Below are positions 26,454-26,503 of a stretch of DNA of 64,000 bases, in pieces. Every line of letters starts with the position of its first letter. Position 1 is the first letter of the stretch. A program made the position numbers and the translations under genes. The notes beneath the pieces are model-generated. The model ran no database searches and was not told the origin of the DNA. It was given only the letters and a program-made list of their open reading frames with translations. The stretch comes from Escherichia coli (GTDB lineage Bacteria; Pseudomonadota; Gammaproteobacteria; Enterobacterales; Enterobacteriaceae): NCBI RefSeq assembly GCF_003334765.1, contig NZ_QOWT01000005.1. One strand, 5' to 3'.

Positions 26454-26503
26454 TTATCATTAATCCGTTAATGATGTGGCCGGGTGAACCCGGCCAAATG
26501 CGA

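Follow-up and report, generated by a model that had tools for sequence, protein, structure and literature searches.

The ygiL–yqiG spacer is uninterrupted in a natural mosaic Escherichia coli strain whose private usher frameshift coincides with the IS3 insertion site of its nearest relatives

In the pap and fim fimbrial operons, a GC-rich stem-loop directly follows the major pilin gene, ahead of the genes for assembly. Transposable elements can leave traces at sites that they once occupied, and the remnant of Tn10 after nearly precise excision is part of its inverted repeats. Small scars of this type have been explained by slippage and realignment at short repeats. Excision is also documented for elements of the IS3 family, with simple as well as other deletion outcomes, and in some E. 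coli the excision step is strongly stimulated by the IS-excision enhancer IEE. The spacers at circle junctions of IS3, IS150 and IS911 measure 2-4 bp (PMC3299598). Table 5 of a published comparison (PMC3032704) gives IS2::yqiG for E. coli K-12 and lists the operon as present/intact in W, B and Crooks.

The stretch of DNA analysed here (the window) comprises 64,000 nucleotides of E. coli contig NZ_QOWT01000005.1 and carries the ygiL-yqiGHI genes on its minus strand. The gene order (pilin, usher, chaperone, fimbrial protein), the synteny with MG1655 and the Pfam content (Fimbrial PF00419; Usher PF00577 with PapC_N and PapC_C; PapD_N/PapD_C) are those of a chaperone-usher fimbrial operon. The major fimbrial subunit gene ygiL (26504..27055, minus strand; 183 aa) is an intact open reading frame with the Fimbrial PF00419 domain, is annotated as ygiL in MG1655 and the relatives, and encodes a protein found in exactly the same form on at least 1000 public contigs. 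Intact reading frames that match the MG1655 annotation were also found for the chaperone gene yqiH (23174..23932, with the annotated start at 23923, minus strand; PapD_N/PapD_C) and for the fimbrial protein gene yqiI (22108..23172, minus strand). The usher gene yqiG is not intact, as a +1 frameshift falls at codon 285 inside the Usher domain.

The spacer that separates ygiL from yqiG measures 50 nt (26454..26503, minus strand) when it is counted up to the first in-frame GTG of yqiG (26451-26453, minus strand). It measures 59 nt, reaching 26445, if yqiG starts at the ATG at 26442..26444 (minus strand), which is the annotated MG1655 start mapped on the window and the start of the 2505-nt usher CDS called by PGAP in strain EC6563. 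Both models are in use in public annotation, giving proteins of 837 aa (50-nt spacer) and 834 aa (59-nt spacer). BLAST searches with IS2 and IS3 gave zero matches across the whole 64-kb window. The spacer holds no transposase ORF, and the inverted repeats in it amount to two small hairpins. The ORF coordinates and these searches confirm the 50-bp, IS-free spacer described in the original prediction. The spacer is also little changed in two alleles that share 96.7% and 92% identity with the window across a surrounding region of 401 nt (26300-26700). The explanation that fits best as a whole, to which we give a probability of about 0.8, is that this interval is the ordinary, uninterrupted spacer of the ygiL-yqiGHI operon in a natural, non-K-12 E. 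coli.

The lesion in yqiG consists of one extra base at 25590..25591 (minus strand), where the gene strand has TT for the wild-type T at yqiG nt 854/855. The gene strand reads CGCAAATTCACGGG at this point in the window and CGCAAATCACGGG in every other genome. The extra base splits the yqiG ORF into two, at 25491..26453 and 23939..25636. Read from the annotated ATG, the 5' fragment (25491..26444, minus strand) encodes 285 wild-type residues, which comprise the signal peptide, PapC_N and roughly the first 90 residues of Usher; after these come 32 out-of-frame residues and a stop. The predicted product is thus 317 aa long instead of 834 and is truncated early in the barrel. The 3' part (23939..25589, minus strand) continues in the original frame through the rest of the Usher barrel and PapC_C and is otherwise undamaged. 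Removal of the extra base yields an 834-aa ORF (PapC_N 35-177, Usher 195-747, PapC_C 759-811) that is 100% identical to the intact EC6563 usher, so the window's yqiG carries no other damage. Compared with the reconstructed MG1655 yqiG, it has 36 substitutions and the one extra base.

A 60-mer containing the extra base had an exact match in none of 5426 complete E. coli genomes, and all 1799 matching records are without the extra base. The usher frameshift is real and is private among these genomes. It is also separate from the IS2 insertion of K-12, which bears out the earlier suggestion of an independent inactivation. The extra T lies outside any homopolymer run; it duplicates a lone T and leaves the adjacent AAA run at its length. 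Programmed frameshifting in yqiG was considered and rejected, given a private allele and a site without slippery sequence. The frameshifted N-terminal product was absent from the protein collection under either start (317 or 320 aa), and the downstream 565-aa ORF was found there.

The site of this lesion is occupied in the window's nearest relatives. Over 25600-50599, only strains B771 and F1022 show ~100% identity to the window, the next best genome being 99.8% identical. Right of the frameshift site, B771 and F1022 have 0-1 difference from the window over 22-36 kb and 0-2 differences per 25 kb; for B771, a human faecal isolate, this amounts to 1 SNP in the 35.9 kb right of 25590. In B771, F1022 and a third strain, D2, the usher gene is split by a 1258-bp IS3 at yqiG nt 852-854 (B771, L011 35867-37124; F1022, L012 26425-27682; D2, L013 25625-26882). 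The junctions in B771 and F1022 read CGCAAAT/TGATC...GGATCA/AATCACGGG, with a duplication of the AAT at yqiG nt 852-854, and the window's +1 base falls on this target duplication (25591-25593). The three IS3 copies have the same orientation and are 99.9-100% identical, which fits a single ancestral insertion. At the left junction in D2 (L013 ~26882), the T of the AAT duplication is missing (CGCAAA/TGATC), owing either to another single-base change next to the junction or to a fault in the assembly.

The yqiG::IS3 junction was found in only 3 of the 5426 genomes (B771, F1022 and D2), and the allele is also present in Escherichia sp. 4_1_40B (EIG69467.1). Among public contigs, the IS3-fused N-terminal ORF (ending in APQIDLTQQ) occurs on 111 + 49 (about 160), and the +1-specific ORF occurs on 2, from 3 samples. 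Further lesions were seen in the relatives that carry the IS3. Single-base deletions in yqiH lie at different positions in B771 (window-equivalent 23557; gene at L011 38794-39542) and F1022 (23550; L012 24007-24755), showing that these frameshifts are independent events in an operon already dead. The glgS gene of B771 (L011 40651-40851) has an internal stop.

We consider the window's +1 base to be probably a 1-nt scar of near-precise IS3 excision, produced by 2-nt strand transfer or by copy-out slippage. Very close relatives hold IS3 at the same site, and the occupied sequence CGCAAAT[IS3]AATCACGGG, less IS3 and 2 nt, is exactly CGCAAATTCACGGG. Along 37 kb of near-identity, B771 and the window show two differences only, one of which lies on the 3-bp IS3 target duplication; the chance of a difference landing on that 3-bp site is ~1e-4, assuming random placement. 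The ratio of about 160 contigs with the IS3 allele to 2 with the +1 allele is as expected of a rare derivative from a larger IS3-bearing group. The genomes searched included none of the window's own lineage with IS3 still inserted, so we infer the ancestral IS3 state, as we do the excision mechanism, from the anatomy, frequencies, relatedness and junction arithmetic observed here.

In the proposed course of events, IS3 would have inserted into the wild-type site, giving the junctions now seen in B771, and would later have been lost together with two of the three duplicated bases, leaving the window's sequence and a gene that stays dead. Copy-out-paste-in transposition normally keeps the donor copy, so excision demands an additional rare step, which might be copy-out slippage or microhomology-mediated joining. 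IS3-family elements form a figure-of-eight, in which the 3'-OH at one end attacks a point on the same strand that lies a few nucleotides beyond the other end. A route that would fit the chemistry of the family has the left IS end attack at 2 nt instead of 3 beyond the other end, with resealing of the donor strand afterwards. Starting from the B771 junctions, an attack 3 nt beyond the IS end, once resealed, would restore the wild type. At 2 nt, the outcome would depend on the donor: the left end would yield the window allele and the right end +A.

The extra base could instead have arisen by a common spontaneous +1 error of replication in a lineage with no IS3 in its past, its position being a coincidence or the result of a local hot spot shared with the insertion. 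Single-base insertions do occur, loss from the donor site is not the normal outcome of IS3-family transposition, and the wild-type site is present in EC6563 and in many other strains with the same yqi haplotype. Nor can the local tree prove an IS3-bearing ancestor of the window: the five genomes compared are identical over 23.6-38 kb, with no informative SNPs, so such a tree cannot nest the window in the IS3-bearing group. In the adjoining 38-48 kb block, D2, which has IS3, shares its haplotype with EC6563, which does not, a grouping at odds with IS3 carriage. It is possible, too, that IS3 was gained after the window's lineage branched off. Against a spontaneous error, one of only two differences from B771 would have had to hit the 3-bp duplication, with the small random chance given above. 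The change duplicated a lone T and did not lengthen the AAA run, none of the 1799 matching records from the 5426 genomes is changed at the site, and the two nearest genomes both hold an IS3 allele that is as rare as 3/5426. These points make a spontaneous origin unlikely, and an excision scar is the reading we prefer.

Two other ways of relating the alleles were rejected. Insertion of IS3 into an ancestor with the +1 base does not work, as no 3-bp duplication of the window's sequence yields the B771 junctions. Loss of IS3 by homologous recombination with K-12-like DNA was discarded in view of the ancestry of the region, in which the K-12 tract ends at 23.6-24.0 kb and B771 alleles are present at 24.4-25.6 kb.

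It is very improbable that the extra base, or the missing IS3, is an artefact of sequencing or assembly and that the strain truly has an intact usher or yqiG::IS3. Such an error would account for an allele that is private among 5426 complete genomes. However, the Logan assembly of SRA run ERR271232 matches the window at 100% along 16.4 kb, extra base included (possibly from the same reads, and so perhaps not independent), and a contig of this type is reported for 3 samples. Only two single-base indels separate the window from MG1655 over 64 kb, so the assembly is not indel-ridden. Nor can a de Bruijn assembler span a 1258-bp repeat in such a way that exactly one extra base is left.

The wider window identifies the strain as a natural mosaic. 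It differs from MG1655 at 289 positions, 4 of them in 1-23.9 kb (3 being private to MG1655) and 285 in 24-64 kb, where divergence is ~0.7% and arranged in mosaic blocks. From 14.0 to 23.6 kb the window's haplotype is that of K-12 (0-2 differences), and B771, F1022, D2 and EC6563 have another one in common, about 65 differences away. The SNP table places the ancestry breakpoint at 23636..23966, at the end of yqiG and the start of yqiH, with the K-12 haplotype to the left and the B771/F1022 haplotype to the right as far as 61.4 kb. Full identity to the window was not reached by any complete genome (at most 99.7% over 14-39 kb), and the SRA run ERR271232 alone gave a match. The original prediction had offered either a K-12-like, IS-free lineage or another E. 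coli strain, and the second of these stands. That the window is an IS-cured or IS-free K-12 derivative that lost IS2 by engineering or precise excision agrees with the mere 4 differences from MG1655 in 1-23.9 kb, but is extremely unlikely given the 285 differences over 24-64 kb (36 of them substitutions within yqiG), the 233 bp of MG1655 missing at 61652/61653, and a natural isolate, B771, within 1 SNP over the 24-64 kb stretch.

Several features of the window were noted besides. The 233-bp segment of MG1655 that is absent at 61652/61653 (MG1655 3150584-3150816, between yghA and exbD) consists of two similar palindromic units resembling REP/BIME elements. Position 20982 carries a private SNP, T in the window and C in MG1655, B771, F1022, D2 and EC6563. 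It is the third position of the stop codon at which yqiJ ends after 204 aa instead of 209 aa, and is presumably a nonsense change that trims 5 residues from YqiJ; the 204-aa yqiJ is called likewise in the ERR271232 assembly. At 18530-19261 lie the tandem sibD/ibsD and sibE/ibsE type I toxin-antitoxin repeats, whose copies share about 91% identity. An extra C private to MG1655 lies at window-equivalent 19063, and the ERR271232 short-read contig ends at about window position 19232, inside this repeat region.

The original prediction had placed an IS2 copy at the ygiL–yqiG junction of MG1655. The locus does contain IS2I, but the element sits within yqiG and not in the spacer. The order in MG1655 is ygiL, a 59-nt spacer, yqiG fragment 1 (71 nt), IS2I (1331 bp, insC5/insD5) and yqiG fragment 2, which puts IS2I within the signal-peptide region of yqiG, at codons 23/24 and 71 nt into the gene, flanked by a GTTAT target site duplication. 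Junction comparison with MG1655 locates the empty target in the window at 26374..26378 (minus strand; yqiG nt 67-71), ~80 nt outside the interval 26454-26503. GTTAT is present there in a single copy, and the window runs colinear across the site, with neither IS2 nor a duplication of GTTAT. In the 50-bp spacer itself, MG1655 is colinear with the window and differs by a single SNP at 26485. Colinearity with K-12, which was to have told against the prediction, is thus found literally for the spacer and not for the region 26000-27100 proposed for comparison.

The ygiL–yqiG locus is present in 3284 of the 5426 complete E. coli genomes and was undetectable in the other 2142, even by blastn with word size 11. 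Carriers form three bands of identity over the 401-nt region 26300-26700: at least 99% (2003 records), 95-99% (1240 records, mostly 96.7% among the rows listed) and 90-95% (41 records, e.g., 92.0%). An empty IS2 site, called as a match over at least 80% of a 60-mer, was found in 2908 of the complete genomes, and the yqiG/IS2 junctions were found in 401 (left) and 371 (right). The 60 genomes listed for the right junction are all K-12 or laboratory strains, among them MG1655, C600, J53, DH5alpha, DH1, NCM3722, HMS174 and RR1. In another isolate, 51243816-SK1A (NZ_OZ409596.1, L008 3021-4421), the ygiL 3' end, the spacer and the 5' portion of yqiG are gone, with an IS903B copy in their place.

These data show that the IS-free state is ancestral and in the majority, and that IS2I is derived and specific to K-12. 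As the empty site is the commonest state and the IS2 carriers listed are all K-12 or laboratory strains, absence of IS2 says only that a genome is not K-12. As a lineage marker, the role first proposed for it, the IS-free junction is weak: it excludes K-12 and nothing else, the empty site being so common (2908 vs 371-401 genomes). The junction is ordinary and already known, with the K-12 IS2::yqiG both annotated in GenBank and published.

The spacer contains two adjacent hairpins on the mRNA strand. The first is a GC-rich hairpin with a 7-bp stem, GGCCGGG-UUCA-CCCGGCC (26478..26495, minus strand), that begins 9 nt past the ygiL stop, and the second is an AU-rich hairpin, AUCAUUAA-CGGA-UUAAUGAU (26456..26475, minus strand), just upstream of the yqiG start. 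A 77-nt region containing them has a predicted folding energy of -23.9 kcal/mol (z = -2.84). SNP 26485 lies in the loop of the first hairpin, which is UUCA in the window, B771, F1022, D2 and EC6563. MG1655 has UUCG, as do the two more divergent alleles mentioned above (96.7% and 92% identity over 26300-26700). The 4 alleles compared, these two included, have the same stems; no covariation was seen, and since the stems never vary, covariation neither supports nor refutes the structure. The GC-rich stem-loop resembles part of an intrinsic terminator, but the sequence 3' of the 26478-26495 stem, ACAUCAUUAACGG, is not a U-tract. A consensus terminator scan found none on the gene (minus) strand in the spacer, and an Rfam scan of 26200-27400 at E <= 1 returned no family. 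By analogy with other fimbrial operons, the chances are about even that the hairpins stabilise or partly terminate the pilin transcript, which would allow more pilin than usher to be made.

Taken across strains, the cryptic usher gene yqiG decays repeatedly and independently: by IS2 in K-12, by IS3 in the B771 group, by an IS903B-associated deletion in another isolate and by one extra base in the window. Only one thing is new here: the private frameshift coincides with the IS3 site of the nearest relatives, a modest curiosity that we offer as a candidate scar. The +1 allele of yqiG may serve as a concrete natural candidate for imprecise IS3 excision, with about 160 assemblies in the occupied state and a tiny clone bearing the putative scar. 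If the scar is what it appears to be, some of the 'simple' frameshift pseudogenes of E. coli would be ghosts of departed insertion sequences, and IS3-family excision would take place in commensal-type lineages as well, beyond the STEC that carry IEE. The locus also illustrates how calls of IS presence or absence can mislead when the insertion point is placed only roughly.

Compared with the yqiG::IS2I allele of K-12 (b3046; insC5/insD5, b3044-b3045), the window has the same gene dead, and ygiL, yqiH and yqiI are intact in both. The lesions themselves differ, as K-12 has a 1331-bp IS2 with a 5-bp duplication at nt 67-71 and no frameshift, whereas the window has an empty IS2 site and the +1 base at nt 854/855. 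The yqiG::IS3 allele of B771 and F1022 shares with the window nearly the same flanking haplotype and a lesion at the same three nucleotides. B771, F1022 and D2 retain the 1258-bp element, with the full AAT duplication at the junctions of B771 and F1022, whereas the window has no IS3 and one extra T left. The hairpin after ygiL is like the stem-loops of pap and fim in its post-pilin position; it differs in having no U-tract, and the likeness is a resemblance seen here in sequence only.

For the proposed event itself, a parallel is the excision of IS3-family elements (IS629/IS1203v and IS600) that transposase and IEE stimulate, in which the element is likewise lost from its donor site in natural E. 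coli. Those excisions were scored mainly by restored function, which detects precise events, whereas the product in the window is one base off, leaves the gene dead and is deduced from sequence. Nearly precise excision of Tn10 and loss of ISApl1 from Tn6330 are similar in leaving a small scar at the old junction, a few bases long in the case of ISApl1. Tn10 (IS4) and ISApl1 (IS30) belong to other families, however, and the putative scar in the window would need no remnant of the insertion sequence, just one duplicated base of its target.
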